From the NCBI GenBank assembly GCA_963818475.1, contig CAWFSF010000006.1, positions 864,001-928,000 on the forward strand: a stretch of 64,000 nucleotides of DNA. The letters are read 5' to 3'. Source of the stretch: Nitrospirota bacterium (GTDB taxonomy: Bacteria; Nitrospirota; UBA9217). Below are positions 2,790 through 49,250 of the stretch, one piece after another. A model generated the notes under the pieces. The model was not told the DNA's origin. It worked only from the letters and a program-made list of their open reading frames with translations, and made no database searches. Positions within the stretch are counted from its first letter, which is position 1; each line of letters opens with the position of its first letter. A program made the position numbers and the translations under genes.

Positions 2790-3053
2790 CGATAACGTGA
2801 CGGGATTCGTTGATGATCACGGCAAGAAGGCCAAGGAATTCGATGGAAAACAGCGCATGAAGGTGATGAACATCGATGACAGGAGTGATGCTGACCGAGC
2901 AGCAGAAAGAACAGCTGCTCCGGAACTGGAAGATTCCCGAACGGCAGGGTGGAAACGTCGGTTGTGCGGCCAGACATGGTTCGAGAGTAAGATTGGGGCA
3001 GGAGAGGTTGAGGGATCCCAATGGTCCCCGGCCTTGAGTGATGAACAGTAAGG

Positions 3054-3088: not shown

Positions 3089-3236
3089 TTGCTCAATCCC
3101 GTCATTTCAGAGCGCTGGTTCTGGGCCTACGTTCTGAATGGATACGTAACAACGGTGAAGGGAACCGTGATCAAATATAAGTAGTCCAACAAAAGTGGTC
3201 TGACGAGTCTTCAAACTTCACTTTTCAAACTTCTAA
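3089..3236 (+). repeat. Duplicate of the lipoprotein 3' end and downstream DNA (1848-1995)
   Basis: 148 bp with 6 mismatches. Confidence 0.9.
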
Positions 3237-3286
3237 CTTCTATGTCGTCAAGACCCTAAGTGCCTCACAAAAGTTCTGTTGAAAGC

Positions 3287-4436: not shown

Positions 4437-4693
4437 ACGTCCTGGTAGATTCTGAATCAAGGCTGACATAAAAGTAGGCGTGGACCTATGAGGTTGGATA
4501 TGGTTCGAGAGCGCGATGAGGAAGGTGAAGACCGAGTAACGCAACGTAAGTAACAACGTTATATATCAATAAGCGAATAGACAAACCGATCAGTATAGCT
4601 GAAAGAAAATTATTTTATAAGCTAGCAAAAAGAGAAGCCTCCTGCTAAGAATAAGTTTATTCCGAAACTAAATTCTCGCACAGGAGGCCTCTC

Positions 4694-5986: not shown

Positions 5987-6009
5987 GCCGGACTGAAAAT
6001 TGAATTTCG

Positions 6010-6200
6010 ACGTAGAGAGCCCGGGACACAACGTTGAGGCGAATGACCTCGTGAGGGACAATACAGGGCCTCTCATAGAACTTGAGAATCTGGATAAGGG
6101 ATGCTTGGCGGCAACGGCACGCCGGATATTTATAACGCTTAGAGAGCAAGTTCGCTTTACGTGAGAAAGTCGTCGAAGAAAATGCTGATGTCCAAACAGG
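6010..6200 (+). ncRNA. Predicted bridge/seek RNA in IS110-1 right end (boundaries approximate)
   Basis: Conserved with IS110-2 right end; ACAACGT and GGGAC match the target, GGATG and TATAAC match the donor ends. Confidence 0.7.
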
Positions 6201-6304
6201 ACGCATAGGTGAAGTGCGTCTTCAAGAAAAACCGTCAGTTATCGTATTGGAATTTCAGCGAAAGCAAGTTGCACTTGACAAGGGGGCTATAGGATGTCCC
6301 CGAG

Positions 6305-14156: not shown

Positions 14157-14204
14157 GGGTCACTTCTTACCCTTGTCATAATTGTCCCACAAAGAAGTGA
14201 CCCC
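14157..14204. repeat. REP-like hairpin; empty equivalent of the intron insertion site
   Basis: GGGTCACTTCTT ... AAGAAGTGACCCC; second copy at 16781-16829. Confidence 0.85.
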
Positions 14205-16659: not shown

Positions 16660-16829
16660 TTTCAATAATAGATATGAAGGCCAATGTATCAGACGTTTAT
16701 CATTCGAGATTTTGACTCTTGCCTTCCAATACAAATGGGCTTCGTAGCTACGTCTTTTGAGGGAGAACCGGTGTCATATAGGGTCACTTCTTTATCATTG
16801 TCATCATTGTCAAGATCAAAGAAGTGACC

Positions 16830-18742
16830 GTTCGCAGTAACAACTGATTATCTCGCGGGTTCAAGTCCCGCCCAAGGAGTTGTCCGTACACCTTGGTAGC
16901 ACGAGGGAGCGGCGTCTGAGCAATCAGAGGTCGTGAGTTCCCAAACGGCAAAGCTACAGGCCGCAGCGAAAGCGAACCTACACGTAGCCTCGTAACTTAT
17001 TCGGAGATGCCGACCTTGTGGTCAAATGGGGAAGGCCGATGCGCGCTGATTCAGACAACGGAATCGATCTGTGCGATCTCCCGGGGTAGCAGGGGCGGCA
17101 TGCAGCGGAAGATAAGCAGTCCAGTGCTGGAGACCCCATACAGTGATGTTAGAGGAACATCAACCGGTGCGTATAAGGAAACGAAAACGCACTGGGCTGT
17201 ATCGGGAGTCGGAGGGGTCCATAGTATCGTTTGAAGGTATGGGACAACATAACCCTGCCCGAGAAAAGGGACCCTGCTTTGTTCACGCAACCGAAGGAGA
17301 GAGGATGAGGGGATTGCAGAGATGCTAACAACCCCAGATACAATCAGGACACTCCAGAGGAAGCTCTACCGTAAGGCCAAGCAAGAACCGGCCTACCGCT
17401 TTTACGCGCTCTACGACAAGATACACCGGGCCGACATCCTCAGTCACGCCTACCATCTTGTCAGGGCCAACAAAGGAAGCGCCGGCATCGACGGCGTCAC
17501 CTTCGAGGCCATAGAGACCGGAGAAGGGGTAATCGCCTTTTTGGCGGAGCTGCAAGAAGCACTGAAGAGCAAGACCTATGCACCAAACCCTGTAAAGCGC
17601 GTCATGATCCCCAAAGGAGACGGCACAGAGCGTCCCTTGGGAATCCCGACCATTAGGGACAGGGTGGCCCAGATGGCCGTAAAACTGGTCATCGAACCGA
17701 TATTTGAAGCGGATTTTATAGACACCTCATACGGATTCAGACCCAAGAAGTCGGCCCATGATGCAATCGAAGACATATCGTATGCCCTTAACTGCGGTTA
17801 TACGGAAGTCATCGACGCCGATGTGTCCAGGTACTTCGACACCATTCCCCATGCCAAACTCATGGCCGTGGTCGCCGAGCGCATCGTTGACAGTGCGATT
17901 CTGCACATTATCCAGATGTGGCTCAAGGCCCCGGTTATGGAAGTGGACAAGGACGGAACGAAGCGCAACATCGGCGGCGGCAAGGCAAACACCAAAGGAA
18001 CACCGCAGGGCGGTGTCATCTCGCCGCTCCTGGCCAATCTCTATCTGCACCTGTTAGATAGGATATGGCATAAGAAGAAGCTTCAGTATAGGCTCGAAGC
18101 GCGTCTTGTCCGGTATGCCGACGATTTTGTCGTGCTGTGCAGAAAGGGAACTGAGCAGCCGATGGCGGTTGTGCGCCGGGTGCTCGAACGACTGGGACTT
18201 GTACTCAATGAGAACAAGACCCGCATGGTGAACGCCAAGCAAGAAGGCTTCAACTTCCTTGGATTTGAACTTCGTATGGGGAAAAGTCGGAGAACGGGCA
18301 ACCTTTACCCCCTTATACAACCGTCACGAAAAGCCCTGAAGAAGATCAAAGACAGCGTTACCGCTCTTACACACAGGCGGATGACGCCGAAGCCGCTTAC
18401 TATGATAATCGAAGATATCAATACCGCCCTCCGGGGCTGGGTCGGGTACTTTCATTACCGCAATAGCAGCAAGGCGTTCAATCGTCTCAAGTTTCATGTG
18501 GAAGCGCGAGTGCGCACGCATCTGCGAAAGCGGCATAAGATCAAAAGCAGGGCAGCGGGGTTTACCAGGTTCACCAACAGGTCTTTGTACGAGAAGTATG
18601 GGCTCTATAAAGTGCCGACGACAGCGGGCTGGCTGAAGGCGCATGCCTTGCGGTGAAGAACATCGGAAAGCCGTGTGCGGGAAAACTGCATGCACGGTTT
18701 GATGAGGGAGGGCTGGTCAATACGACCAGCTCTCTACTCTAC
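16830..18742 (+). mobile_element. Group II intron inserted at GTGACC/CC of a REP-like hairpin
   Basis: 5' GTTCG; domain V aagccgtgtgcgggaaaactgcatgcacggtttgatgagg; 3' ctactctAC; flanks rejoin to match 14191-14207. Confidence 0.9.
17322..18656 (+). CDS. ltrA: Group II intron reverse transcriptase/maturase without endonuclease domain
   Basis: RPLGIPTIRDR, GTPQGGVISPLLAN, RYADD, LRGWVGYF. Confidence 0.95.
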   Translation: MLTTPDTIRTLQRKLYRKAKQEPAYRFYALYDKIHRADILSHAYHLVRANKGSAGIDGVTFEAIETGEGVIAFLAELQEALKSKTYAPNPVKRVMIPKGDGTERPLGIPTIRDRVAQMAVKLVIEPIFEADFIDTSYGFRPKKSAHDAIEDISYALNCGYTEVIDADVSRYFDTIPHAKLMAVVAERIVDSAILHIIQMWLKAPVMEVDKDGTKRNIGGGKANTKGTPQGGVISPLLANLYLHLLDRIWHKKKLQYRLEARLVRYADDFVVLCRKGTEQPMAVVRRVLERLGLVLNENKTRMVNAKQEGFNFLGFELRMGKSRRTGNLYPLIQPSRKALKKIKDSVTALTHRRMTPKPLTMIIEDINTALRGWVGYFHYRNSSKAFNRLKFHVEARVRTHLRKRHKIKSRAAGFTRFTNRSLYEKYGLYKVPTTAGWLKAHALR

Positions 18743-34100: not shown

Positions 34101-37100
34101 CGGGCTTCCTGACAAACTTAGTCCGGGCCTCGTGATGCTCAACACTGGCAGCGGATACAAGGCCATAACCTGGCCTGGTCTCGGCGAAGTGGCGCGTGAT
34201 GAGCACGTCTCCTATGGCGGCGGCGTCTACTTCACGTTTGGATTCACCATCTACGACATCATCAAGATCACGTTCAATATCGGCGTGAATATGACGAACA
34301 ATATTGGACGTCCCGAAGTGGCCTTCCGCGACATTGATGGCGACGGATATGTCGATCAACTGACCTCTACTTCAGCCGAACAATTATCAGTGGGTCGAAA
34401 TCAGATCGGCCGCACCAATATCCTTAAAACCGTGAAACGTCCGCTCGGCGGCAGCATCAGCGATCGAATACACGCGCGACGGCAATACCTATGACATGCC
34501 CCAGAGTCAGTGGACCCTTACGAAGTCGACCCTGACCGACGGCAGGAAGAACACGTACGAGACAGAGTTCGCATACAAAAACGGGTACAAGGACCGTTTT
34601 GAACGGGACTTCTACGGCTTCGAGACCGTGATCGAGAAACATGCGCCCGGTAAGTTCGACGTTTATAATAAATCGATCGAGCGCTGGATCGTGCAGACCT
34701 TCAATAATCGCGACTTCTATTTGAAGGGACTTCTGCTGGATTCGAGGACTACCGACAAGAACATGACGCATATCTGGGCCAGGACCGTCAACGAGTATAC
34801 GCTCATGCCTGTAGCGGGCTTCGACTACACTCAGTTCCCCGCCCTTTCCAGGACGGACACTTACTTCTATGACGGCAATGACAGCTCCAGCGCGAAAGAA
34901 GATGGCTTCAAGAAGAGTACCTACCAGAGGTTTGATTATGATCTCTTCGGGAATGTCAGCAAGTTCTGGGATTTCGGGGAGTTTTATCCGACGAACGATA
35001 TAACCGACGATATGCGCGCAGACATTGATTACTACAACGACCCGATCAAATACATCATCAAACCGCGGGAGATCAAGGTCTACGGAACCGCGAACAACAG
35101 ATCTCTTCGCTGGAGAACCTCAGGCTACGATGCAGCGGGCAATATGACAAGTCTCACGCTCCATAATACCGGTACGCCAGCGTCTGTCTCTACCATGTCC
35201 TATGATGATTACGGCAACATTCAGACCATCATAGATCCAGTTAATTACGCACTTACCTACAGCTACGATCAGACGACGTCAACGTATGTAACCGGCATCA
35301 TCGACAACTTTGCGACACCCTATTATTCCTCTGCCTCCTATAACCCGCTTTACGGGCAGATGCAGACGTCCGTTGACCTGAACATGAACATGGAGGCGAG
35401 GGGATACGACGAGTTCGGCAGGCTGATCTGCGTGTACGGACCGTATGATACGGTTCCTGTAGATCCCAACTCGTGCTCAGGCTCTCCGACCATAACCTTT
35501 GCTTACACGGCGCCTTTGGTCGCTTCGGATAATGACCTGAACGCTCCGGTCCATGCGGTTACGGTCAATAAGGCAATCTCGGCTAAGGGCACGAGCCCGA
35601 TCAACATCAAGACTGTCACGTACGCGGACGGCTTGAAACGCATCATTCAGACCAAGAAGGATGCAGATGTGTACGATGTAACGACAGGTCAGCCTGCCTA
35701 CGGTATGACCATCTCTGGTCTCGTCGCCTTCGACGAACTTGGCCGTGTTACGAGCCAGGGCCAGCCTGAATTCGAAGCTGGCTTCAATGAGGCATTCTCG
35801 GAGCTCGCAGCAACGAACCCGACATACTTCTCCTACGATATTCTCGATCGGACAACGCAGCTGCTTACACCTGATGACAAGGGGGACACGGACAGCGCCC
35901 GACCGGGCAAGTTCGCAAAAATAACGACCACGTATACGTTCGACTATTTCAACGGTAACCTCTACGCCAAGAGTGTTGTTGTAGATCCCGAAGGCAACCA
36001 TGTAATGGGCGCAAATTTCAGAGGCACCAAGGAAAGCTACCAGGACGTGGATGACCGGATCGTCGGCGTGGTCGAGTACAACAACGGCCATCTCATCAAC
36101 ACCGCTTACACCTACGATCCGCTTGGTCAGATCACCTCAGTAACGGACAACAAAGGCAATACCACCACAGTTGCCTATGACCAGGTCGGCAACAGGACTG
36201 AGATCAACAACCCGGATGCCGGCAAGACCACATACGGTTATGACGCTAACGGCAACATGACGAGCAAGCAGAACGGAAATAGCCAGAACATAGCGTACAA
36301 GTACACCTTCAACCGGTTAACTGACATAACGTACCCGCAAAGCACGACGGTGCATTATGACTACGGCCAAATGAATGAAGCCTTTAATCGCGCTGCAAGG
36401 ATCAAGCAGGTCACCGACGAGTCAGGCACCGAGTGGCGGTACTACGGCAGACTGGGCGAGACAATTCGTGAAGAGAAGATGGTGAATGCCCATACCCCGG
36501 CCGTGCAGAAGAAGAAGTATACCACTGACTACGTCTTCGACTCCTTCGGCAGAATGTGGGAGATGACCTATCCCGACGGCGAAACGCTGCACTACGCCTA
36601 CGACAAGGGCGGTCTGCTCAAGGCTGCCTGGGGCGAGAAGACGAGCAACAGGTATAACTATGTGAACAATCTCTACTATGACAAGTTTGCCCAGAGGGTC
36701 TATATCGAGTATGGGAACAAGACGAAAACAATCTACACCTACAACGACAAGACCAGAAGACTGGCAACACTCGACACGAATCTCAAGGGCGGGCAGTACA
36801 TACAGAAGCTGGGCTACACCTACGACCTTGTCGGCAACGTCAAAACTCTGCTGAACAACATCGCCATACCCACGAGCACTGCGCTCCCGGCAGGCCCTGT
36901 TCATCAAGAGTTTCTCTATGATGATCTTTACCAGATTACGAATGCAGAGGGTGGCTACACGTACAATGAGCACCCGAGGACTTCTGATGGCAAAACTACT
37001 ATCAGTCCGAATAAGTGGAATAATTATCACAACGATTTCACTTATGACACTATCGGCAACATGACCCAGAAGGTCCAGGTCAACCAGATCATTCAGCCGT

Positions 37101-38659
37101 CGACTACCGCGCTCCTTCCGAAGAAGACGAACTACGTGCTCAACTATGCTTATGATGCGAGCAAGCCGCATGCCGTGATTGACGATGGAGCAAAAACGTA
37201 CTCCTACGATCCGGCAGGCAACATGACCGGCTGGCAGGACAAGAACTCGGGCCAGAAGCGGACGATCAAATGGAACGAAGAGAACAGAGTTAAGGAGATC
37301 GACGACAACGGCAAGGCCACGTACTTCCTTTATGATGACGCCGGTGAACGCGTCGCCAAGAGAGGCCAGTACGGCGAGACGATCTATATCAACCGGTTCT
37401 ATGCAATAAAGAACGGAGAACTCGGAACCAAGCACGTTTTCGCCGGCGAGACGAGAGTGCTTTCGAAGGTGGTAAAGACACCGCCTACGACAACGGCAAA
37501 CAGCTCGACAACTACATCCACAACCTCGAATGTGACTTCAAGCACGACATCGACAATACCCGGCATAAACGGGTTAGACAACGGCAGGGGTAAGAAGCTC
37601 GGTATCATCAAGCGCCTGGGAGACGGTTATGTGTCAGGCATCACCCAGCCAGTCGAGAAAGATGAGTTCTATTACCATACAGACCATCTCGGCTCGAGCA
37701 ACATGATCACTGACGCATATGGCGATGTGTATCAGCATCTCGAGAACTTCCCGTATGGTGAGAGCTGGATCGAGGAAGGTGGCAGCCATGGTGGTAATCT
37801 GCCGGGATACAAGTTCACCGGCAAGGAGCTTGATCCGGAGACTAATCTGTACTATTATGGTGCACGGTACTATGATCCAGTCTTGAGCAAGTGGATTAGT
37901 GCGGATCCGATATTGGGAAAATATCTCAATGGTAAAGGAGAGAACTCGATTTATCAACCCGAAGTCCTGGCCCTCTTTAGTTATGCGCACCTTAACCCTA
38001 TAAAACTGATTGATCCAGATGGCAATGAACCTAATAACGCACAAGCTATTACGTGGCAACAAGCCAGGCAAATTATAATAAGCAATTCGCGAACTACAGG
38101 AAAAACAATAACACTTCAAAATCTTCTATATCTTCAAGGTGCTCGCGGCGGGAAAAAAGTCGGTCCTTTCGGTGGCGATCGCGGTGGTCGGTATGTTTGG
38201 ACTGCAAAACGAGGCTGGATGGATCTCGGTCATTTCTTTCAAGTGGCAGGAAAGGCTCAGGAAAAATTGGGATCAGCTGGGCGATTGACTGCAAAATGGA
38301 CATATCAAGGTAGGGCTGCTTTCGAAGCTGGACTTTTTGCAATGACCAGTTATGCTGAGAACAAGGATAAGGGGACAGCATCTTATAATTCCTATGAAGA
38401 TCGTCCGAGTAATAGAGCGGGAGCTGACTTTTTCTTGGGGTATTATGAGGGTGGACGGGGAAAGGAGTTACTGAAAAATCTGGACAAATTCTTCGAAGAT
38501 GCTGGAGCTGGTAGGCCTCAAGATGCAGCAAATTGGAAAAAGATGCAGGCAAGCCCTCGAACGAAACAATGGTTTGAGCAGAATGATTCGTATACGCCTA
38601 TGCTTAACCCGAGGCGAATGAATCCTCCCGTTTATCCACCAGATAAAGGAGGCCAATAA
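28176..38659 (+). CDS. Giant SpvB/TcdB-like FG-GAP and Rhs toxin (~3,490 aa), split by two +1 frameshifts (~33694, ~34459)
   Basis: Signal peptide, ZU5-like region, SpvB GTANLSYPIEVP..GMGWDL, DxNGDGLPD repeats, YD repeats, YYYGARYYDP, DPDG. Confidence 0.85.
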
Positions 38660-39186
38660 TGAACAAAAAAATTGCAACTGCCATAATTGTAATTATTTCT
38701 TGTAGTCTAGGATTTGTTGCCGGTTACTTCACAAATTCTTTCATTCAGTTTTCTAGATCTTCGGGCATTTCCGAAAAGAGAATGAATGAACTTACTCGCG
38801 GACCATGTGAAGTACGGTTAAGAGGGATAAATGATCCTGTAATTAAATTGTTGCAAAAGGCTTATAATCTGCAAGAGACTGAACACGAAGATCTTGAGAT
38901 TAAGTCGATAAACGAATGCAGGTTTAACTATGTTTTGGAGTCAGATTTCCAAGGCGTTGCTAAAGTAATTTTTTCCCCAAGATCAAAAGGGGTCAATCGA
39001 GTTGAATTTTATAGTCGGAATGACGATTCTTTGTGGACGATGAGCGGGCCTAGTTTTGTTGCTTCCCTCTTTTCTGACGACAAACGGAACTATTTATATG
39101 ACGGATTTCGAGGCCGAATGTACGTAATGGAGAAAAATAATATTTCATCTTTTAAAGAAATCGGACAAGGGGCCCATATTAAGTAA
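38659..39186 (+). CDS. Putative immunity protein with N-terminal membrane anchor
   Basis: Start overlaps the Rhs stop codon; AT-rich. Confidence 0.55.
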   Translation: MNKKIATAIIVIISCSLGFVAGYFTNSFIQFSRSSGISEKRMNELTRGPCEVRLRGINDPVIKLLQKAYNLQETEHEDLEIKSINECRFNYVLESDFQGVAKVIFSPRSKGVNRVEFYSRNDDSLWTMSGPSFVASLFSDDKRNYLYDGFRGRMYVMEKNNISSFKEIGQGAHIK

Positions 39187-39195
39187 GACAATCTT

Positions 39196-39225
39196 GGGGA
39201 CATCCTATAGCCCCCTTGTCAAGTG
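39196..39225 (-). mobile_element. Solo IS110 right-end/target junction
   Basis: 30/30 reverse complement of 6272-6301. Confidence 0.85.
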
Positions 39226-39233
39226 GCAATCTT

Positions 39234-40300
39234 GGGGACGTTGTTACTTACATTGCAAAACACTTGACATCGCCATTAGAAGTCGATAATATTCCTTCAT
39301 GCCGCGTCACGCTCGCTTAGACGCCCCCGGCGCCTTGCACCACATCATGGTCCGGGGGATCGATAAGTCAAACATCTTTCGCGATGCAGAGGACAAAGCC
39401 CGCTTTCTTGAGCGTCTTGGGCAAAACGTTCAGGGCTCCAAATGTTCAATATACGCCTGGGTGCTCATGGACAACCATGTTCACCTGCTATTCCGAAGCG
39501 GCCAAGACGGCATCTCAGCCGTCATGAGAAAACTCCTTACCTGGTACGCCCAATACTTTAACCGCAGGCACGGCCGGAAGGGGCATCTGTTCGAAAACCG
39601 GTACAAATCCATCCTCTGCGACGAAGACAACTATCTCCTTGCCCTTGTCCGCTACATCCATCTTAATCCCGTTCGAGCAAAAATCATCCAGACCATGGCA
39701 GAGATGGACAAATACCCCTGGAGCGGCCATCGTGCCGTGATAGAAAAGGCAAAGTACCCGTGGATGGACACGGCAACAGTATTGTCACAGTTCGGAGGCA
39801 CGAAAAGAAAAGCCAGGAATGAATATCGGCGGTTTATGCAGGAGGGCATGGATCAGGGACACGATCCCCAGTTTTCCGGCGGCGGACTTGTTCGGAGCCT
39901 CGGCGGGTGGTCCAATGTCCTCTCTATGAGACGGAAAGGCCATAAGGAGGAAACGGACGAGCGGATCCTTGGAAGCGGCGATTTCGTACATCAAGTCATA
40001 AAAGAAGCGGAAGAGAAGTCGCTGCGGCAGATGAAACTCAAAAGATCGGGGCTGACCCTGATAAAGATCGTCGAGCAGGAATGTAGAAAAGGGCAGGTCA
40101 GCCGGATGGAACTGGAGAGCGGCAGCCGGCGGTCTAAAGTAAGTCAAGCGCGTGCACAGATCGCACGACGCGGCATGAAAGAGCTCGGCCTTTCGGCCGC
40201 AGAGGTTGCGCGACATCTTGGCGTAGCCACATCAAGCATAACGCGGGCAGTTAATAAAATCGAGATTCGAGATACAATGCAACGTAAGTAACAACGTCCC
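39234..40300 (+). mobile_element. Y1 tyrosine-transposase element with 23-bp terminal inverted repeats
   Basis: gggacgttgttacttacattgca (39235-39257) vs tgcaacgtaagtaacaacgtccc (40278-40300), 22/23. Confidence 0.85.
39299..40291 (+). CDS. RAYT-like HUH/Y1 transposase with C-terminal HTH
   Basis: MPRHAR, HHIMVRG, NHVHLL, GHLFENRYKS, YIHLNP, YPWS. Confidence 0.92.
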   Translation: MPRHARLDAPGALHHIMVRGIDKSNIFRDAEDKARFLERLGQNVQGSKCSIYAWVLMDNHVHLLFRSGQDGISAVMRKLLTWYAQYFNRRHGRKGHLFENRYKSILCDEDNYLLALVRYIHLNPVRAKIIQTMAEMDKYPWSGHRAVIEKAKYPWMDTATVLSQFGGTKRKARNEYRRFMQEGMDQGHDPQFSGGGLVRSLGGWSNVLSMRRKGHKEETDERILGSGDFVHQVIKEAEEKSLRQMKLKRSGLTLIKIVEQECRKGQVSRMELESGSRRSKVSQARAQIARRGMKELGLSAAEVARHLGVATSSITRAVNKIEIRDTMQRK

Positions 40301-40570
40301 GAAAGTTCGCATTGTATGTCGTGTCTATCTGCAGTTAATAATAGAATTTCTAGCTCCGGGGTTTTCTGGCAGCGCTTGGATTCGTAATATCATTGTTTTA
40401 TGTTGGCAGAGCTGCCGAAGCCTTACGGGGCTTTAGTACGTTTCTTTTGTTCGCGTTCCTTGGAATTGCAGTTCTAAGGGCAGTCGGATTGATTTCTGGT
40501 GAGCCAGTTTCGTTCTAGGAAGAAAGAAAAGTAGGGACCCGAACGAGTTCATGCGCCATTCAAGCTACAA

Positions 40571-40593
40571 GGGGTCATTGGGGTCACTTCTTT
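40571..40593 (-). repeat. Hairpin arm AAAGAAGTGACCCC (another empty intron-type site)
   Basis: ggggtcattggggtcacttcttt. Confidence 0.7.
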
Positions 40594-41142
40594 ACGGGTT
40601 GTTGCTCAAATGACTTTTCACAATCGGTTAAGCGCCTTGATGCAAAAAAAGTCTAAGCTAACGATAGGGAAATACCGGTTCTGTCTCTGGGGAAAGCTCA
40701 AACTGAGCGAGCCGGAGGCCTTTACCTCTGTTCTTTGAACAACGAGCTGCCTTGCTGCAGCTGCTTTCTTCGGCTTCGATACATGCGCTATCAGCACTTG
40801 GATATTTTGGATGGCACATTTTACAGTATAGATAAGGAAGCCGATAACGACAACGTATTGAAATTCATTAACACGAAAAGAACAGGATGAAAACGAGGAT
40901 ATGCAAGGAGCGAACTGCGGGATAATGAGACGTTCGCCAGGGCGCAGGGCGGGCGACATGTACGGACCTGGCGGCGGTCCAATGGCAACAGGAAAGGTCA
41001 TAGGTAAAGGACGACGGACTGGAGCCGCGATGTCGACATCGAGTCGCAAACGAGCGGAAGAGAAGTCAGGCGGCACAGGGAACTCGAACAGCGGGGCTGA
41101 CGCGGACAAACTCGACGGAGCGAGGAATGTAGCAAGGCCTCG

Positions 41143-41345
41143 TCAGCCGGCTGCGGGAGGCGAATCCCGACGGTCCAGGTACGTCAGGCCGCTCAGGGAG
41201 CAGACGCTTCTTGAAGGACTCGCATTCGGCCGGCAAAGCCCGCGCCATCGAGCCTTATCAAAACCGTATCGGGTTCCCCTGGCAAAGGAACGCTCCATTA
41301 GATGTTGTCTGGTTTTGATGTCATAACGTGCATTGGCTGATCGAC
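41143..41345 (-). pseudogene. IS1182/IS5-type transposase C-terminal fragment
   Basis: RQHLMERSFARGTRYGFDKARWRGL. Confidence 0.6.
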
Positions 41346-41348
41346 TGA

Positions 41349-42345
41349 TTGCACGCATGCGCTCCAGGACATCCTGCCGGAGATGACGCTAGCGATTCAT
41401 ACCGGTTCCTGGCTTTACTCCGCATCGCACCGTTGTTGGTATCTTCGGTCATTGCTCGCTCGAGTGATACGACTCACTCGGCGGGGGAAAAAACAGTTTG
41501 TGGCGTCTGCAGCACGGTTCACCGGACCTTTTACGATCATAAGATCAAGCGGGTCCGTGATCTTTCTAATGGCGATGCCCGCATCTATCTGGAACTACCG
41601 GTACGACGAGTCCAGTGCCGGAGGTGCGGTAAGGTGAAACAAGAGAAGCTGGCGTTTCTGGCAGACAGTCCGTTTTATACCAAGCGCTTTGCCTTCTATA
41701 TCGGCAAGCGGTGCAGCACCTCAACGATCAAGGATGTTGCCAAAGAGTTTCATCTTGACCGAAGAGCCGTCAAAGAACTCGAAATGCAGTACATGCGGGA
41801 GAAGCTTCGTCGGGCTGGAAACCCCGGACCGAAAGTTATCGGTATCGACGAAATCTCGATCCGCAAGGGCCATACGTACCGGATCGTAGTCAGCGACCTG
41901 GAGCGGCGGCGGCCAATCTGGTTCGGAGGTGAAGACCGCTCGGAAGAAAGCCTAAACTGCTTCTTCGACGAGTTGGGGCCGAAAAAGGCTAGCAAAATAC
42001 GCCTTGCGGTCATGGACATGTGGAAGCCTTTTGAAAAGTCCACACGTCAAGAAAGCTCCGCAGGCAGCCATTCTCTACGACAAGTTCCATATCATAAGGC
42101 ACCTGAACGATGCCTTGGACAAAATTAGAAAGAGCGAATATGCCAGACTGACCGGCAACAGTCGTAAGTTCATCAAGGGTCAGAAATATACGCTTCTCTC
42201 GCATCGCGAGAATCTTACGACGGATGGGAGAAGATCGTTAAAGACGCTTTTGACTGCTAACAAGCGGCTAAACACTGCCTATATCCTTAAAGAGGAGTTC
42301 GGGCAGCTCTGGGACTATCAGTCAGAAGCCTGGGCCAGAAAGTAA
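41349..42345 (+). pseudogene. ISL3 transposase, frameshifted and truncated
   Basis: Zn finger CGVC/CRRC, IGIDEISIRKGHTY, VMDMWKPF, YDKFH. Confidence 0.88.
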
Positions 42346-42751
42346 AATCCTATTTGGTTCGAATCTGAAACGGATCCGTTGGCGTCAGATAACCAAATTA
42401 GGGAGGCAGAAAAACGATTAAAATTAAAATTTTCGATTGAATATGCTCAATTTTTAAAAATTATGGCGGCGGCTATTTTGCATTCGTCAATGTTTTTTCT
42501 GTTGATCCCACCAGTGAGTGGGACATAGTAAAACGTAATTCGAACATCATAGGAAAACCGACTTCCTTGCCATTCCAGACGATGAATCAGGCGGTTATTA
42601 TGGTTTTATAGTAACTAACAATGTTCGTGAATCAAAGATTGTGTACTTCGAATTTGAAGAGGGTAAGGTATTGCGTGAGCCGGTTTATGAAAATTTGTTT
42701 GACTATCTTGTCAAGGTAGGATGTAGAAAAAACGGCGAAACAAAGGAATAA
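42346..42751 (+). pseudogene. SMI1/KNR4 immunity protein remnant
   Basis: IREAEKRLKLKFSIEYAQFLK / YGGGYF..DDESGGYYGF..NLFDYL across frameshifts. Confidence 0.7.
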
Positions 42752-42786
42752 CGTTGGAGGGCTAATGGGGTTGTTTTGGCTCAGCG

Positions 42787-43046
42787 TGAATTGGACTTTC
42801 AGCCGATTTGAGATAAACTATCTCGAACGGAGGAAGGTCCATGCGAAAAAAGCGTCACAATTACACACCCGAGGAGAAGGTTGCGATCCTCAAGCGTCAT
42901 CTGGTCGAACAGGTCCCGATCTCAGACCTATGCGACAAGTATCAGTTGCAACCAACGGTCTTCTGCCACTGGCAGAAGCAGTTCTTTGAAAACGGTGCGG
43001 CAGCCTTCACTCAAGGCAAGGATCCCAAGCGCCAAGAAACCCAGCA
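42787..43046 (+). pseudogene. IS3-family left end and orfA fragment
   Basis: RHNYTPEEKVAILKRHL..WQKQFFENG; cut at caatcttggggac. Confidence 0.75.
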
Positions 43047-43129
43047 CAATCTTGGGGACATACTATATAGCTCCTGTCAAGAGACCCTTTATTTTGCATG
43101 ATTTTCAATAAGATAATTTTCTGCATCAA

Positions 43130-43345
43130 CTAAGAACACAGTTTTCCTTCCGGCATTCCTGCCGCTATCGCTTTATCGGCGAGTCTCTCGCATTCAGGCG
43201 AACGACGGCTTAATCGTTATATCTATCCGGCGTGCATGGCCGCCAAGAATACCTTATCCAGATTCCATCGTTCAAACGAGAGGCACTGTATTGTCCCGCA
43301 CGAGGTCAACTGCCCTCAACGTTGATGCTCGGGCTCTTGCCGAAA
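43130..43345 (-). ncRNA. Predicted bridge/seek RNA of IS110-2 (boundaries approximate)
   Basis: Homologous to 6010-6200; ATCAACGT matches its own target 8/8. Confidence 0.7.
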
Positions 43346-43378
43346 TCGTTTTTGTGCTTCAGGATCATGCCGCTTTTT

Positions 43379-44660
43379 TCAGCGTTTTCGGATCCTCCTG
43401 CTTGAGATATTTTGGATCGAAGATTCTTTCTTCTTCATCAGCGTCCATGCGATGATCAAGAGTTTTGCGGCGAGCTTGACACGCATCTTTGTGCCGATCC
43501 CTTTCTCCCGCCCGGCCTTTGAGCTTGTTCGTAAAGTAGGCGATGAAGTCCTTGTTCTTGGCGAGGCGATAAGCGCCGCCTGATACAGTCCATACCGGAG
43601 GTCGGCCTTACCCTGTTTGGAGATGACCGGTATCGCGCTGTTTGACTTCTTGCCGCTCCGGTTCGCGCAAAGGCCAAGACCGGCCATTTTCAAGACCTGC
43701 TTCGCGTCGTAAACCGCTGAGGATTACCGATGGCCCCCAGGACTTTCGAAGAGATATCCGGCCCGAATCCCGGAATGCTCAGAAGGTACGTATACTCGGG
43801 AAACTCCAGGCAAGCATCCTCGATCTTGTCTTCCACTGACTTGATGCTTTGGCGAAGCTGCTTCAAACTGTCCACCATGACCTGCGCTTCGAAAAAAGGC
43901 CTCTCCATGGTGACAGATGGATCAACCGCGGCCCTCCAGATCTTGCCACCTTGCGGCCCTTGGATAGCTCATTGTGCCCGGCGCGACGGTACGGCAGAAG
44001 TCATCGTATTCCATGCCAGCGATCTCCGACGGATCGAGGCATTCCCTCACTACTGCCAGGGTTTCCGAGGGACCATAGTGTTGGTCCAGCTCGGGAAATA
44101 CTGCGCGAGGAGTTGGTTGCGAATGCACGCGCTTAAGCCGTGTTCCCGTTTCTTCAGCCGCCGTTTAAGCGCGTTGAGTATACGTACGTTCCGCAGCGTC
44201 ATCAGGGGGTATTCGTAAAACAGGCACTTTCCCTGGGAGATGAGATCGGCGACATTTGCAGCGTCTTTAACGTCATGCTTGTCCCAGCGGCCGTCCAGAA
44301 GCGGCCAGTTGTTCTTGACCGCGACGCCTCCCACAAGAACAACCATGTGCCCGCATTTGATCAGATGCTCCGCCAGGGGCTTGTGATAGTTTGCTGTCGG
44401 CTCGATGCCGAAAACGACTACCGTCAGGCTGTATTGAACTTTTATTCGCTCGACATAAGCGAGCAGCTTTTGAAAGCCTTCAAGCGTATTGTCAAAAACC
44501 AGATTCTTAACCAGAGTTTTGCCACGTGCCGTGCCGAAAAAAGCGTTATGTTTTTCCTTAGCCGCATCAATGCCGACGATCAAATGCTTATCCGAACCGC
44601 GAATCTCTTTCTTCAGTTGAAGAAACTGCTCAAGTCTGATATCATCTACATAGTTCTATA
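43379..44660 (-). pseudogene. IS110 transposase with several frameshifts
   Basis: VGIDAAK, GIEPTANYHKPL, IPGFGPD, KMRVKLAAKLL in different frames. Confidence 0.88.
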
Positions 44661-44807
44661 GAAGCCTCCTGTCTCTTGAATTTAGTTCCGTCATAAACTA
44701 ATTCTTAGCAAGAGGTTTCTGTTTTGGGTAGCTTATGAAAAAATATTCTTTCAGCTATACTGCTTGATTCACCTATGCTCTTTCTACTATACTTTCTACT
44801 ATATAAC

Positions 44808-44952
44808 GTTGATACCTAGCAAGCATTTAGCTTGACAAACCCTACCCTATTTAAAATCACCCCATGCCACGCCAAGCGAGACTCGACGTACCCGGAGCCC
44901 TGTGGGGGCATTGGGGTCACTGAGATACAATGCAACATAAGTAACAACGTCC
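44808..44952 (+). mobile_element. Internally deleted (MITE-like) derivative of the Y1-transposase element
   Basis: ATG at 44864 encodes MPRQARLDVPGAL, followed by gagatacaatgcaacataagtaacaacgtcc matching 40269-40299. Confidence 0.8.
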
Positions 44953-45060
44953 GTACGCAGTAACAACTGATTATCTTGCGAGTTCAAGTCCCGTCCGAGG
45001 AATTGTCCGTACACCTCGATAGCACGAGGGAGCGGCATCTGAGCAATCGGGACGTATGGG
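44953..45060 (+). mobile_element. 5' fragment of a second group II intron
   Basis: gtacgcagtaacaactgattatc..gcacgagggagcggc..ctgagcaatc homologous to 16830-16925. Confidence 0.85.
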
Positions 45061-45180
45061 ATTTCCCCAAGGTAACCTATAACGCTGATCGGATCCTGCA
45101 ACTGTTGAGACCCCGCCCCACCATAGCCCTTTCCGAAAAAAAGCTTGCAACAACTCAGTAAAATCAGTAATATACACCTC

Positions 45181-45819
45181 GTGAAAAAAATACAGGATTA
45201 CTTCAAAAAATACTTCATTACCGGGCTGCTCGTGCTCATCCCGATCTGGGCGACCTACTATGTGCTGTCAGGCCTGCTGGGGATCATCGACGGGATGCTG
45301 GGCGATTTGCCGGGATACTTGCTGGGACTGAAGTTCCCGGGGCTCGGCATCATCACGCTGATCCTGTTCGTGCTGTTCATCGGCGTCCTCTCCGCCAACT
45401 ATATCGGCAAGAACCTGGTCAGCTACAGCGATTCCATGATGCAACGAGTCCCGTTGGTGCGCGGTGTCTATTCCACCATGAAGAAGATCATGGATACCTT
45501 TTCCATGAAGCAGAACTTCCATGGCGTCGGACTGGTCGAATATCCCCGGAAGGGCTGTTACAGCGTAGGATTCATCACCGGCGGCCTTCAGGGTGAGGAA
45601 TTGGGTCTCACCGGCAGGTTTATGACGGTCTTTGTTCCTACCACCCCGAACCCCACAGCGGGTTTTCTTCTTCTCCTCCCCGAGACGGAGGTGCACCGGC
45701 TCAATATGTCCGTTGATGAGGGCATGAAGTTCATTGTCTCTCTCGGGCTGGTGTCACTGAGCGAGATTCAGGCCAATAAGCTTAAGAACAACGTTTGCAC
45801 TGAGGCTTCCAAAGTATGA
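45181..45819 (+). CDS. DUF502 domain protein
   Basis: YFITGLLVLIP, VEYPRKG, VFVPTTPNPTAG. Confidence 0.9.
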   Translation: MKKIQDYFKKYFITGLLVLIPIWATYYVLSGLLGIIDGMLGDLPGYLLGLKFPGLGIITLILFVLFIGVLSANYIGKNLVSYSDSMMQRVPLVRGVYSTMKKIMDTFSMKQNFHGVGLVEYPRKGCYSVGFITGGLQGEELGLTGRFMTVFVPTTPNPTAGFLLLLPETEVHRLNMSVDEGMKFIVSLGLVSLSEIQANKLKNNVCTEASKV

Positions 45820-47201
45820 AACCGACCGTGGTGATCCTTGCAGCAGGGCTGGGGACGAGAATGAAGTCCGGCCTTGCCAAAGCCCTGCACCCTCTTGCGG
45901 GACGGCCGCTGATCCAGCATGTTCTGGAGGCTGTTTCGGGGCTCGCTGCTGAACGGACCGTTGTCGTGCTGGGCCACCAGGCCGACCACGTGCGGAAAAT
46001 AGTGGAAGGGTACGGCGCAACCATAGCGCTCCAGGCAGAGCAGCTCGGCACGGGACATGCGGTGATGCAGGCACACGAGGTCATTGCTGCGGCGAAAGGA
46101 CCGGTCCTGATCCTCTGCGCTGATACGCCGCTGCTCACCACGACCACGCTGCGTTCGATCGTAGATCTCCATGCCGCGTCCCGCGCTGCGGTGACGGTCA
46201 TGACGGCCGTGGTCCTGGATCCCTTCGGGTACGGCAGGGTCGTGCGGAGCAAGGGCGGCATCACGCGCATTGTCGAGGAGAAGGACGCCACCACGGCCCA
46301 GAAAAAGATCATTGAAGTGAATGCCGGGATCTACTGTTTTGAACAACGGTTCCTGCTGGAAGCGCTGAAGTCCATCGGAAATAAGAACGCACAGGGTGAA
46401 TACTATCTGCCGGATACGATAACGCTGGCGCGGAAAAAACGACTCGTTGTGGCGGGCCTGGTCTGCGAAGACCCTGATGAGGTCATGGGGGTCAATACGC
46501 GGGTCGACCTGAGCCGCGCGGAACATATCATGCGTTCCCGGATCAACCGCGCCTGGATGCTGGCAGGCGTGACCATGCTCGACCCCGGCGCGACCTTCAT
46601 CGGGAGCGAGGTCACCTTGGGCCGCGACTGTATCCTGTATCCGAACGTCAGACTCGAAGGAAAAACAACGATCGGTCAGGGATGCACGGTCTTTCCAGGC
46701 ACCCGGATCGTGGACAGTACCATCGGCAATGCAGTGACGGTCAAGGACTGCTCCGTGATCGAAGAGAGCGCGATCGACGACAGCGCTTCGGTGGGGCCCT
46801 TCGCTCATCTCCGGCCCGGTTCGGTCATCGGCGCCCGGGCCAGGATCGGCAACTTTGTCGAGATAAAGAAAACATCCATTGGCGAGGGCAGCAAGGCGAA
46901 TCATCTCGCCTATATCGGCGACGCCACCGTGGGAAAAGACGTGAACATCGGCGCCGGCGTGATCACCTGCAATTATGACGGTTTCGATAAATTTGCGACG
47001 ATCATCGAGGACGGAGTATTTGTCGGCAGCGACAGCCAACTGGTGGCGCCGGTCCGGATCGGACGCGGGGCGCTTATCGCCGCAGGAGCCACGATCACGC
47101 GCGATGTCCCGGCTGATGCCCTGGCCATCAGCCGCCCGCCGCAGGACATACGCGAAGGTTTTGCCGGAAGGCGAAGGAAAATGAAGCAAAAAAAGAAGTG
47201 A
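45816..47201 (+). CDS. glmU: Bifunctional UDP-GlcNAc pyrophosphorylase/acetyltransferase
   Basis: LAAGLGTRMKS, QLGTGHA, hexapeptide repeats, NYDG. Confidence 0.97.
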   Translation: MKPTVVILAAGLGTRMKSGLAKALHPLAGRPLIQHVLEAVSGLAAERTVVVLGHQADHVRKIVEGYGATIALQAEQLGTGHAVMQAHEVIAAAKGPVLILCADTPLLTTTTLRSIVDLHAASRAAVTVMTAVVLDPFGYGRVVRSKGGITRIVEEKDATTAQKKIIEVNAGIYCFEQRFLLEALKSIGNKNAQGEYYLPDTITLARKKRLVVAGLVCEDPDEVMGVNTRVDLSRAEHIMRSRINRAWMLAGVTMLDPGATFIGSEVTLGRDCILYPNVRLEGKTTIGQGCTVFPGTRIVDSTIGNAVTVKDCSVIEESAIDDSASVGPFAHLRPGSVIGARARIGNFVEIKKTSIGEGSKANHLAYIGDATVGKDVNIGAGVITCNYDGFDKFATIIEDGVFVGSDSQLVAPVRIGRGALIAAGATITRDVPADALAISRPPQDIREGFAGRRRKMKQKKK

Positions 47202-47202
47202 T

Positions 47203-47375
47203 TTTGATGCATTCGTAAAAAGTCGAGAAGGCCGTCTTTGTGAGGGTCCCTTGCCGTCATTGCGAGCCAAAGGCGAAGCAATCTCGAAGTTGGTATCTGC
47301 CTGGAAAAACGAGATTGCCGCGTCGCTCCGCTCCTCGCAATGACAGCAGTTGGGGACTTCTTACGAGACCATCAA
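47203..47375. repeat. Nested palindromic repeat element between glmU and glmS
   Basis: Outer ttgatg..tcgtaaaaagtc / gacttcttacgagaccatcaa; inner gtcattgcgag..gcaatctc / gagattgc..ctcgcaatgac. Confidence 0.75.
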
Positions 47376-47420
47376 TCTTGCACTTTGCAATTTGTGTTAC
47401 GAACTGAGGTGTTTTGATCT

Positions 47421-49250
47421 ATGTGCGGAATTATCGGCTATATCGGCAAAGAACCTGCAGTCCCGATCCTGATCGAGGGGCTTAAAAAGCTTGAGTACCG
47501 CGGCTATGATTCTTCAGGCGTGGCGGTCATGCAGAATGACAAGATCGAGGTCCGCAGGGCCGTGGGCAAGCTCCAGAACCTGGAGACGCTGCTTCGCAGC
47601 GAATCGCTGAGCGGCAGGATCGGTATCGGACATGTCCGCTGGGCCACGCACGGCCGCCCGTCCGAGGAGAACGCCCATCCGCACCGCGCCGGCAACATCG
47701 TGGTCGTGCACAACGGCATCATCGAAAACTATATTACGCTCAAAAAAGAGCTCGCTGCCAAGGGCCGCACCTTTCTGTCCGAAACTGACACAGAGGTCAT
47801 CGCTCAGTTGATTGACAGCCTTGCCAAAGACGGCGTCAGCCTTGAAACGGCTGTCCGGGAAGCGACCCGCCACCTCGAAGGGGCCTACGCCATAGCGGTC
47901 ATCGACGAGCGTGACCCCGAGGTCGTCATCGGCGCACGGAAGGGCAGTCCGCTGGTTGTCGGTCTCGGCCAGGGTGAGTTTTTCCTGGCTTCGGATATCC
48001 CCGCCATTTTGCACCGCACGCGCGACGTGCTGTTCCTGGACGACGATGAGATGGCCATCCTTTCGGATGTGGGGGTCCGTATTACCGACCTCAAAGGCAA
48101 TGAAGTGACCCGCGAGATCACCCGCGTCCTCTGGAACCCGGTGATGGCGGAAAAGGGCGGTTACCGCCACTTCATGCTGAAGGAGATCTTCGAGCAGCCC
48201 CGGGCGATCATGGACACCATCCGCGGCCGCATTTCCCAGGAAACCGGCGCCATTCATCTGGAAGAGGTCGGCATCGGTCGGGAGCGCCTCAATACGATCA
48301 AGAAGATCTTTATCGTTGCCTGCGGCACGTCATGGCATGCCGGCCTGGCGGGCAAATACATGATCGAAGAGCTCGCGTCGATCCCGACCGAGGTCGACAT
48401 CGCATCGGAGTTCCGGTACCGTAATCCCCTGGTGGGCCCCGACGACCTGTTCATCGCCATTACCCAGTCGGGCGAGACCGCCGATACGCTGGCTGCCATG
48501 CGCGAGGCCAAGAAAAAAGGGGCAACGGTCATTGTTGTCTGCAATGTCGTTGGATCCACGGCGAGCCGCGAGGCCGACGGCGTGGTCTATACCCACGCCG
48601 GACCCGAGATCGGCGTGGCTTCGACCAAAGCCTTTACAGCACAGCTTACGGCGCTCTACCTCTTCGGCCTGTTCTTCGCCGGATTGCGCAAAACGCTTGC
48701 TATTGACGAATTGAAGAAGAAGCTTGCCGACCTGGTGCACATTCCCTCGCTTGTTGAGCGCTGCCTTGAGGACAACGAACGCATCGAGCAGATCGCGAAG
48801 CTTTTCTTCAAGGCCAACGACTTCCTGTACCTCGGCCGGGGGCCGAACTTCCCGGTAGCGCTCGAGGGCGCGCTCAAACTGAAAGAGATCTCATACATCC
48901 ATGCCGAGGGGTATCCGGCTGGAGAAATGAAACACGGTCCGATCGCGCTGATCGACGAGAACCTGCCCGTCGTGGTCCTGGCCGGCAGGAACGGCGTCTA
49001 TGAAAAGATCCTGGCCAATATCGAAGAAGTGAAGGCCCGCGGCGGGATCGTCATCGCGATCACGACCGAGGGAGACACCGAGATCGTCAAGCGGGTGGAC
49101 CACGCGGTCGCGGTGCCGGCGACGAACCAGCTGTTGATGCCGATCCTCCTGTCCATCCCGCTCCAGTTGCTGGCATACCACATTGCCGTGCTGCGCGGCG
49201 CCGATGTTGACCAGCCCCGAAATCTAGCCAAGAGCGTAACGGTGGAGTGA
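47421..49250 (+). CDS. glmS: Glutamine--fructose-6-phosphate aminotransferase
   Basis: MCGIIG, RWATHG, PRNLAKSVTVE. Confidence 0.98.
   Translation: MCGIIGYIGKEPAVPILIEGLKKLEYRGYDSSGVAVMQNDKIEVRRAVGKLQNLETLLRSESLSGRIGIGHVRWATHGRPSEENAHPHRAGNIVVVHNGIIENYITLKKELAAKGRTFLSETDTEVIAQLIDSLAKDGVSLETAVREATRHLEGAYAIAVIDERDPEVVIGARKGSPLVVGLGQGEFFLASDIPAILHRTRDVLFLDDDEMAILSDVGVRITDLKGNEVTREITRVLWNPVMAEKGGYRHFMLKEIFEQPRAIMDTIRGRISQETGAIHLEEVGIGRERLNTIKKIFIVACGTSWHAGLAGKYMIEELASIPTEVDIASEFRYRNPLVGPDDLFIAITQSGETADTLAAMREAKKKGATVIVVCNVVGSTASREADGVVYTHAGPEIGVASTKAFTAQLTALYLFGLFFAGLRKTLAIDELKKKLADLVHIPSLVERCLEDNERIEQIAKLFFKANDFLYLGRGPNFPVALEGALKLKEISYIHAEGYPAGEMKHGPIALIDENLPVVVLAGRNGVYEKILANIEEVKARGGIVIAITTEGDTEIVKRVDHAVAVPATNQLLMPILLSIPLQLLAYHIAVLRGADVDQPRNLAKSVTVE

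Follow-up and report, generated by a model that had tools for sequence, protein, structure and literature searches.

Insertion of an IS110-family element and a group II intron at the two terminal repeats of a RAYT-like Y1 transposon remnant

How do the remains of three mobile elements come to lie base to base in one short piece of DNA? This question is raised by positions 43047-45082 of the window, a stretch of 64,000 nucleotides from a Nitrospirota genome (assembly GCA_963818475.1, contig CAWFSF010000006.1, positions 864,001 to 928,000 of the forward strand). At this locus, an insertion sequence (IS) of the IS110 family is lodged in the left terminal repeat of a Y1 transposon remnant, and the beginning of a group II intron abuts its right terminal repeat; the transposon resembles the elements of REP-associated tyrosine transposases (RAYT; REP, repetitive extragenic palindrome). 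Among the bacterial systems that insert DNA under the guidance of RNA, IS110-family recombinases and group II introns are the two main kinds. We propose, with a probability of roughly 0.8, that both of them hit one and the same terminal-repeat motif of the transposon and that all the parts decayed later. This would account for the dead IS in one end-repeat and the intron stump at the other, the same ten-base motif being the target of both elements.

The anatomy of the locus is based on a reading of window positions 38800-48500. The interval 43047-44952 is a non-functional Y1 remnant, made up of a left end, 13 codons, a 19-nt joint and a 31-nt right end. On the plus strand it opens with the outer 11 nt of the left terminal repeat, caatcttgggg (43047-43057), which are identical to positions 39227-39237 of a full-length Y1 element in the window and align with other Y1 left ends. 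At this point the repeat is split by the IS (termed IS110_2; 43058-44805, minus strand, one GT core counted) and it resumes with acgttgat at 44806, as the first-pass annotation of this DNA had described. The inner part of the left end (44806-44863) is 65-69% identical to four Y1 left ends and carries a decayed promoter. The boxes ttgaca and taaaat that had been seen there are both present (44832-37 and 44852-57), but they were not called by the promoter scan because their spacer is only 14 nt long; in the full copy, TTGACA-17-TAATAT was called by the same scan. An ATG at 44864 then opens the first 13 codons of the Y1 transposase, MPRQARLDVPGAL (44864-44902), which align with the Y1 gene starts on contigs C1 and C5 of the same genome. 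They are followed in frame by WGHWGH and a stop, the whole translation being MPRQARLDVPGALWGHWGH. After the joint (44903-44921), which is unrelated to the transposase gene and includes the reported junction ggggcattggggtcac at 44905-44920, comes the right terminal repeat (44922-44952), ending with AACAACGTCC and matching positions 40269-40299 of the full element at 30 of 31 bases. The intron sequence, GTACGCAGTAAC, begins at 44953, exactly where it had been placed; what is left of it is, however, only a 5' stump of about 100-130 nt (44953-45082).

The full-length Y1 element used as reference (39227-40306, plus strand) is bounded by 26-nt terminal inverted repeats of 92% identity (inverted-repeat pair I13). 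Its transposase (39299-40291, 330 aa) scores 49.4 bits with the Pfam model Y1_Tnp (cut-off 23; 5.9e-13) and shows a weak C-terminal helix-turn-helix. It carries HVH at residues 60-62 and Tyr 102 within ENRYKS, which we take to be the catalytic residues; a PDB sequence search with this protein gave no match. Three full Y1 copies in this genome (hereafter G000, a 7-contig assembly of 91% completeness and 6% contamination, with C1, C2, C5 and C6 among its contigs) are bracketed by ends of the ..AACAACGTCCCCAAG type, and it is the motif discussed here that forms those ends. The end sequences are written GGGGACGTTG.. on the left and ..CAACGTCCCC on the right. A scan of G000 with a 19-mer of the repeat, allowing up to 4 mismatches, gave 24 matches, from which six belonging to an unrelated repeat and one doubtful case were removed, leaving 17.

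IS110_2 was compared with an intact element of the window, IS110_1 (4560-6297, plus strand). The 430-aa transposase of IS110_1 contains both domains of the family, the DEDD/RuvC-like N-terminal one (DEDD_Tnp_IS110, PF01548, 1.8e-19) and Transposase_20 (PF02371, 5.9e-16), and reaches 152.5 bits with the NCBIfam model 'IS110 family RNA-guided transposase' (NF033542, cut-off 140). About 310 nt of non-coding DNA lie 3' of its gene. IS110_2 is 70% identical to it over 1583 nt, with ends that align with the IS110_1 ends. When IS110_2 was searched by tblastn with the 430-aa query, the transposase match (43379-44661, minus strand, 56% identity) was spread over three frames with in-frame stops; the start codon position reads ATA/TAG and the list of open reading frames (ORFs) holds four short pieces. 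IS110_2 is a pseudogene-bearing, dead element. Its insertion can nevertheless be read from its borders: the dinucleotide AC (GT on the IS strand) stands at both junctions, at 43058-59 and 44806-07, and excision of the IS with one core therefore restores the continuous left end caatcttggggACgttgat. These junctions rest on this restored end and on the single-copy status of IS110_2. From the end sequences, the circle junction of both IS types would read TTGACA-17-TATATA.

The same junctions were observed elsewhere. IS110_1 sits in a right-end-type repeat, ..gtaacaacGT-IS-GTccccgag. All three full IS110 copies of G000 have CAACGT as left flank and CCC as right flank, and insertion is site- and orientation-specific, with a shared core dinucleotide and no target duplication, in all three of them as well as in genomes G003 and G016. 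The target of the G003 copy is ..aaccaacGT-IS-GTccccaaag, and that of three G016 copies is ..acac(t/c)acGT-IS-GTcc(c/t)c...; a fourth G016 copy lies in ctaggtatcaacGT, a site of the left-end type found at our locus. The solo right-end fragments of the IS in G000, one of which has the variant IS terminus GGATAAC, are followed by CCC(C)AA in six cases out of six.

Between the two IS types, conservation is highest in a ~135-nt block of the 3' non-coding DNA (pairs I6, I11 and I15), which may supply a guide RNA. In IS110_1 the block reads GGGAC (6023-27), the complement of GTCCC, and then ACAACGT (6028-34), which equals the left flank plus the core. In IS110_2 it lies at 43211-43345 (minus strand), with the corresponding segment ATCAACGT at 43319-43326. 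This candidate guide segment varies together with the left flank in three IS types: it is ACAACGT in IS110_1, whose target is aACAACGT; ATCAACGT in IS110_2 and in its intact relative L023, the target of IS110_2 being tATCAACGT; and ACTACGT in the three G016 copies, which lie in cACTACGT (two) and cACCACGT (one). Since the junction types recur and the segment co-varies with the left flank, the IS insertions look targeted. Short matches to both target strands, overlapping at the insertion point, are also a feature of the seekRNA described in PMC11187229.

A full-length copy of the intron is present in the window as well (16830-18742, plus strand). It comprises domains D1-D4 and D5/D6 and, in D4, an ORF for a reverse transcriptase-maturase, and it scores above the cut-offs of the Rfam models RF02005 (66.1 bits, cut-off 49) and RF00029 (54.2 bits, cut-off 40). 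The intron-encoded protein (IEP; 17322-18656) matches RVT_1, GIIM and TIGR04416 (396.8 bits), and no endonuclease-domain family was found in it at E <= 0.001. Six copies of 99.9% identity exist in G000. The stump is 91% identical to the start of this intron (44951-45048 against 16828-16925, family D14; 90.6% over 96 nt). Homology can be followed clearly to about 45050 and faintly to about 45082. The stretch 44953-45082 is not a complete ribozyme: only the first ~98 nt align, no D5/D6 match was obtained and the ORF is missing. Rfam gave a sub-threshold match to D1 at 44976-45087 (E = 0.034). A tRNA fragment or integration site was also considered, as GCGGGTTCAAGTCCCGC in the stump looks like a T-arm; ARAGORN found no tRNA in the window, and Rfam places this sequence at the D1 start of a group II intron.

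Regarding the choice of target by the intron, the six active copies in G000 follow GACC, with a 3' exon that starts C(C/T)N, and six copies of the same lineage in G002 and G009 follow (T)GACC. In these 12 of 12 own-lineage copies, (T)GACC is the sole shared upstream sequence. The loop of exon-binding site 1 (EBS1), at 17020-24 in the reference copy, reads GGTCA in the three own-lineage copies read. The stump, for its part, follows CGTCC, and its first base abuts GTCC exactly. The 20-mer consisting of AACAACGTCC and the adjoining intron start GTWCGCAGTA was scanned exactly in the genomes of 185,579 species (596 Gb) and was found at four loci in other genomes (L009-L012), with metagenome-assembled genome (MAG) labels Geobacteraceae, Desulfuromonadaceae, Desulfuromonadales and Oryzomonas. 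These are real junctions, because all four continue as homologous intron sequence. In both full-length introns among them (L011 and L012), EBS1 is GGACG(T), the complement of (A)CGTCC. The pairing of EBS1 GGACG with GTCC, as against GGTCA with GACC, therefore indicates that the intron family has been retargeted by a change of guide.

The surroundings of the motif agree with this. At L010 the intron lies at the 3' base of a two-repeat hairpin, GGGACGTTGTTGATTAG...CTAATCAACAACGTCC (z = -5.5), and the hairpin signal is weak at L009, L011 and L012. The closest parallel to our locus is L009 (1155-1832), in a Geobacteraceae MAG, where a Y1 deletion derivative of ~355 nt keeps 28 codons and holds an ORF-less mini intron of 322 nt in its right end. 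In G042 the motif occurs ~60 nt downstream of a Y1 homologue. Among the four outside genomes, a link between the motif and a Y1 gene was seen in G042 and at L009 only, and it was absent beside the Y1 homologues of G043 and G044. The triple nesting itself did not recur in the 40 related genomes that were searched for it. A candidate nest of repeat and intron at G002:C392 was discarded, as the site has TGACC and not the repeat.

On the strand read by both elements, the motif is AACAAC-GT-CC^CC, in which the IS is found at GT and the intron two bases further on. The proposal that the two elements use positions about 2 nt apart in one motif is confirmed in this way, the IS being at the GT core and the intron after the GTCC of AACAACGT-CC-CC. 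Furthermore, the IS segment GGGAC-ACAACGT and the intron EBS1 GGACG read overlapping bases, ACGTCC. The following scheme would explain the locus. The Y1 remnant would have been struck twice in the motif 5'-AACAACGT^CC^CC-3' by unrelated RNA-guided elements. An IS110-family element would have recombined at the GT core of the left repeat, guided by RNA from its 3' block, and a group II intron, whose reverse transcriptase lacks an endonuclease, would have reverse-spliced after the GTCC of the right repeat by pairing of EBS1 with intron-binding site 1 (IBS1). Later deletion and mutation would have reduced the Y1 gene to 13 codons, frameshifted the IS transposase and cut the intron down to ~100-130 nt. 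The anatomy, both kinds of recurring junction and the guide segments that vary with their targets are observed; in this scheme, we infer the production of the RNAs and their use as guides, the order of the events and the deletions. In its present state the locus is a graveyard of mobile elements, of which all three parts are dead, and it is DNA without function.

Several observations weigh against this scheme. The guide RNAs of the IS and of the intron are candidates deduced from the sequence. Rfam scans of either IS for a bridge or seek RNA gave no match; no co-variation of a guide with the right flank of the IS was found, the alternation CTTGG/CTGGG failing to track the right flanks; and IS110_2 and L023 read GAGCA where IS110_1 reads GGGAC. 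For the intron, chance would give about two matches in 596 Gb for a 20-mer with one two-fold position, so that the case depends on all four loci being true intron starts, and the ten upstream bases are identical in the four hits by construction, because the scan required AACAACGTCC. In G000, three of the six copies stand at the base of strong palindromes that begin with GGTCA and end with TGACC (z <= -3.2), and the others do not. The EBS1 of the stump is deleted, and the sequence of the stump is nearest to the own-genus lineage, of which the cognate site is GACC; GTCC may have been an off-target site for this intron. The intron has lost its 3' junction, and on this side the repeat that it split cannot be put together again. 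Lastly, among the indexed public runs, none contained even a tenth of the sampled words (best share 0.09), so that none of them has the source reads.

The locus might also be regarded as a dump of mobile DNA, in which pieces became adjacent by random insertion and deletion and no target was shared. The region is indeed rich in remnants, with a frameshifted ISL3, an IS3 orfA fragment, a degenerate Y1 piece and RHS cassettes. However, both elements start or end to the base at set positions of the repeat, junctions of the same types were found at independent sites as well as in other genomes, and the guide segments co-vary with their targets, by which a chance pile-up is largely refuted and appears highly improbable. 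We consider an assembly artefact equally improbable. It would require that IS, intron and terminal repeats were mis-joined in this MAG of seven contigs, and the completeness and contamination given above, the repeat nature of all the parts and the failure to find a public run with the source reads could be invoked in its favour. Nevertheless, IS110_2 and the mini element are single-copy, which leaves no other copy for a false join; the left end reads through once the IS is taken out, one core dinucleotide being shared by its two junctions; and, when contigs of four other public runs were compared with the locus, an independent contig of 271 nt (X2) was found to bridge right repeat, stump and native DNA without a difference, being identical to 44922-45128. 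Another contig (X3) follows 42900-43045 and then continues as different sequence, which supports the left break at 43045/46.

Two further alternatives leave the insertions real and concern what the stump and the remnant are. The stump could have arisen by ectopic retrotransposition of a GACC-specific intron into a near-cognate site, EBS1 GGUCA facing GUCC with one U-U mismatch. In agreement with this, the stump, at 91% identity, aligns better with the own-genus intron than with the lineage of L011 and L012, own-lineage copies follow GACC in 12 of 12 cases and the GGACG variant was not seen in G000, G002 or G009. On the other hand, the exact junction of AACAACGTCC with GTWCGC recurs in four other genomes, with a matching EBS1 in both full-length copies, and the stump is old (9% diverged), so that an extinct sub-lineage could have been its source. 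We regard this origin as a serious possibility, though not the favoured one. As to the remnant, the first-pass annotation took it for a mini Y1 element; a clean derivation from the neighbouring full copy did not hold. When the reconstructed element was aligned with this copy, the right end agreed (30/31; repeat family D19) but the left end was only 65% identical, against 68-69% with three other G000 copies; for the right end, agreement with those of C1 and C5a is 22-23 of 31 positions. From the contrast between the two ends and the break of the X2 contig, which differs left of 44922, it follows that the remnant is probably a composite. Being single-copy in G000, it is in any case a remnant and not a propagating miniature element. 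Right repeat and stump give the impression of an older unit, the left part having been added afterwards. That this unit was a solo one and that the left end, with the IS already in it or still to come, was brought to it by deletion or recombination between different Y1-family copies, so that the mini element never was one element, is a tentative proposal to which we give somewhat less than even odds. It is favoured, in addition to the two ends, the X2 contig and the single-copy state, by the 13 codons, which fit the C1/C5a Y1 type better than the neighbouring copy, and by the joint, of which the 12-mer CATTGGGGTCAC has only two occurrences in G000, here and at window positions 40576-40587 beside another Y1 remnant. 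Against it, the two remnant ends still pair (GGACGTTG/CAACGTCC), a diverged Y1 copy, since lost, whose right end was of the window type could also have given the remnant by a simple internal deletion, and the organism of X2 may carry another rearrangement. A composite origin would alter the word 'nest' but not the targeting, and two insertions guided to one motif remain our preferred reading of the locus.

The association of two such elements with one folded repeat recalls attC sites, which are used by IS1111-attC elements and by group IIC-attC introns (PMC3001079, PMC11187229, PMC4424553). As with attC sites, a single kind of folded repeat is entered here by an IS110/IS1111-type element as well as by a group II intron (PMC11187229, PMC4424553); in contrast to them, the repeat belongs to a Y1 transposon, and the insertion points are 2 nt apart with overlapping guide bases, ACGTCC. 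Transposon end-repeats, REPs and attC are known targets of IS110/IS1111 elements (PMC11187229; PMC12288879; title of Partridge and Hall 2003), and inverted repeats are known targets of group II introns (PMC4424553). The kinds of targeting are thus known and the example of a target is new, although the target logos of PMC11187229 may already include it. Among the ten matches listed, out of 51, for group II introns with RAYT or REPtron in the literature, no paper joined both, which does not imply that the association is unpublished.

As a natural record, the locus documents how a group II intron and a recombinase of the IS110 family came to converge on one transposon end-repeat, in which the bases that they use overlap; after attC sites and REPs, it is the third such case. 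It yields matched guide-target pairs and, for both elements, natural examples of retargeting in which guide segment and target change together. A broader idea is that the ten-base end motif of RAYT-like Y1 transposons and of their palindromic minis serves as a shared safe harbour for the two RNA-guided elements across Desulfuromonadales/Geobacterales, both guides being reprogrammed in step with the repeat variants (ACAACGT, ATCAACGT and ACTACGT for IS110; GGUCA and GGACG for EBS1). It would include hyperparasites of these elements, namely ORF-less mini introns of 261-322 nt and solo IS110 modules of 27-353 nt, which, by analogy with the ssr9 module of ISPpu9, may move alone. We give this idea slightly less than an even chance.

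The three elements can be compared with known types as follows. For IS110/IS1111 elements, the likeness lies in the DEDD transposase with PF02371, in the orientation- and position-specific entry into a short motif of a hairpin-prone repeat, in the long non-coding region with short matches to both target strands and in the promoter predicted at the circle junction; the target, the terminal repeat of a RAYT-like Y1 transposon, is the difference. The size of the transposase (430 aa) is that of the IS110 subgroup, yet the long non-coding region, with its candidate guide RNA, is downstream as in IS1111; this position is described for IS1111-type and for some IS110-type elements (PMC11187229).

Group IIC introns lack an endonuclease and enter after terminators or other inverted repeats (PMC1702495; PMC4424553). 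The intron studied here resembles them in several traits and may be of this class: no endonuclease-domain match, 4-5 conserved bases upstream, a 3' exon starting with C, many copies at the 3' base of an inverted repeat, and a short IBS1 without a conserved IBS2 (PMC4424553, PMC1702495). It differs in that the inverted repeats are transposon-like palindrome ends (GGACG..CGTCC and GGTCA..TGACC) and not terminators with a T run, and in that a strong hairpin accompanies only half of its own copies.

As for the Y1 element, RAYT genes between long terminal inverted repeats of moderate copy number have been described (PMC3733652), and the present element shares with them a Y1/HUH transposase gene between inverted repeats, a moderate repeat number (~17 copies here, against the more than 100 per genome of high-copy REPs) and the existence of gene-less repeat pairs. 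Its gene lies between inverted copies of a genome-wide repeat, namely the 26-nt pair. The best NCBIfam model for the protein is indeed 'REP-associated tyrosine transposase' (NF047646), but its score, 68.2 bits, is under the cut-off of 80. In addition, the protein has an extra C-terminal helix-turn-helix region, and several diverged full copies occur per genome instead of one. Compared with IS200/IS605, the Y1 domain is present, but the element has clear terminal inverted repeats, which that family, with its subterminal hairpins, lacks.

A number of further observations concern the IS. The six solo IS110_1 right-end fragments in G000 are 27 to 353 nt long and all have the exact right terminus (window 39188-39237; G000:C1:303505-303580; G000:C5:632872, 187635, 609604 and 179161). 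In two cases the outer half of the Y1 repeat is duplicated and stands on both sides of the fragment, as ..GTCCCCAAGATTGC before it and GTCCCCAAGATTG after it. By analogy, these fragments recall the separately circularising ssr9 module of ISPpu9 (PMC12288879). At G000:C5:187929-187990, directly after a solo right-end fragment, a 20-nt target-like unit, gtccccaatgttctcgttac, is tandemly duplicated. A short IS110 right-end remnant, ctcggggacatcctat, was also seen in G003, ~80 nt upstream of the conserved DUF502 leader.

For the intron, palindromes GGGTCACTTCTTT..AAAGAAGTGACC and GTCAAATCTTC..GAAGATTTGACC are homing sites of the active copies, entry taking place right after the last CC. An empty palindrome copy is found at window positions 14157-14203 and an occupied one at 16781-16829; other such sites are G000:C2:835799, G000:C6:271794 and, in G002, C402 and C169. 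A stretch of 32 kb (G000:C6:241301-273709) holds four of the six full copies, one of which lies in a terminator-like hairpin, immediately past the 3' end of a tRNA-like sequence. At G000:C6:277740-277960, a 139-nt fragment of the intron 3' end (93.5%) stands 8 nt past a right-end-type repeat from which 6 nt around the GT core are missing, and is followed by CCAAACGGTCCCGGGCAAGATTC. This fragment (G000:C6:277811) was tried as a second insertion in the repeat and rejected, as it is 8 nt beyond a repeat without those 6 nt. In G044, an ORF-less mini intron of 261 nt (L014) comes after a hairpin and CGACC.

A repeated end, cattggggtcacttctttacggg(c/t)tgttgc, was found at window positions 40576-40610, at G000 C2:15, C5:763258 and C6:744490, and at L003 ~3010-3035. 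It resembles a Y1 left end that is longer by 10 bases at the place of the IS110 core, and the joint of the mini element repeats its first 12 bases.

A variable region of ~57 kb has its right border at this locus. Synteny with the same-genus genome G003 is regained at G000:C6:852467 on the left side and close to window position 45083 on the right, upstream of DUF502, in accordance with the border that had been placed before DUF502-glmU; in G003 the region is ~24 kb long and filled with RHS-type repeats and IS110 right-end fragments. The first native gene on the right is DUF502 (45145-45819, plus strand; Pfam DUF502 5.1e-29), followed by glmU and glmS, and its upstream region is conserved in G003 and G004. 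On the left, the neighbour of the remnant is a 5' fragment of an IS3-type orfA (42841-43046, plus strand; Pfam HTH_Tnp_1 1.3e-07), which stops where the Y1 left end begins. In the annotation of such regions, short 'tRNA-like' or promoter-like pieces should be suspected of being stumps of mobile elements.

Further to the left, positions 34496-39186 encode an RHS-repeat protein of 1387 aa (Pfam RHS_repeat and TcdB_toxin_midN), and then a small ORF without family. Positions 40900-42760 hold a degenerate 3' piece of a Y1 gene (40991-41153), a frameshifted ISL3 transposase (41349-42345) and a further small ORF. The content of 34496-42760 is typical clutter of polymorphic toxins and mobile DNA. At the other end of the window, 14-nt repeats of the GAAGTTTGAAGGG type (families D1 and D12) form arrays in both orientations at 400-1620 and 3200-3240.

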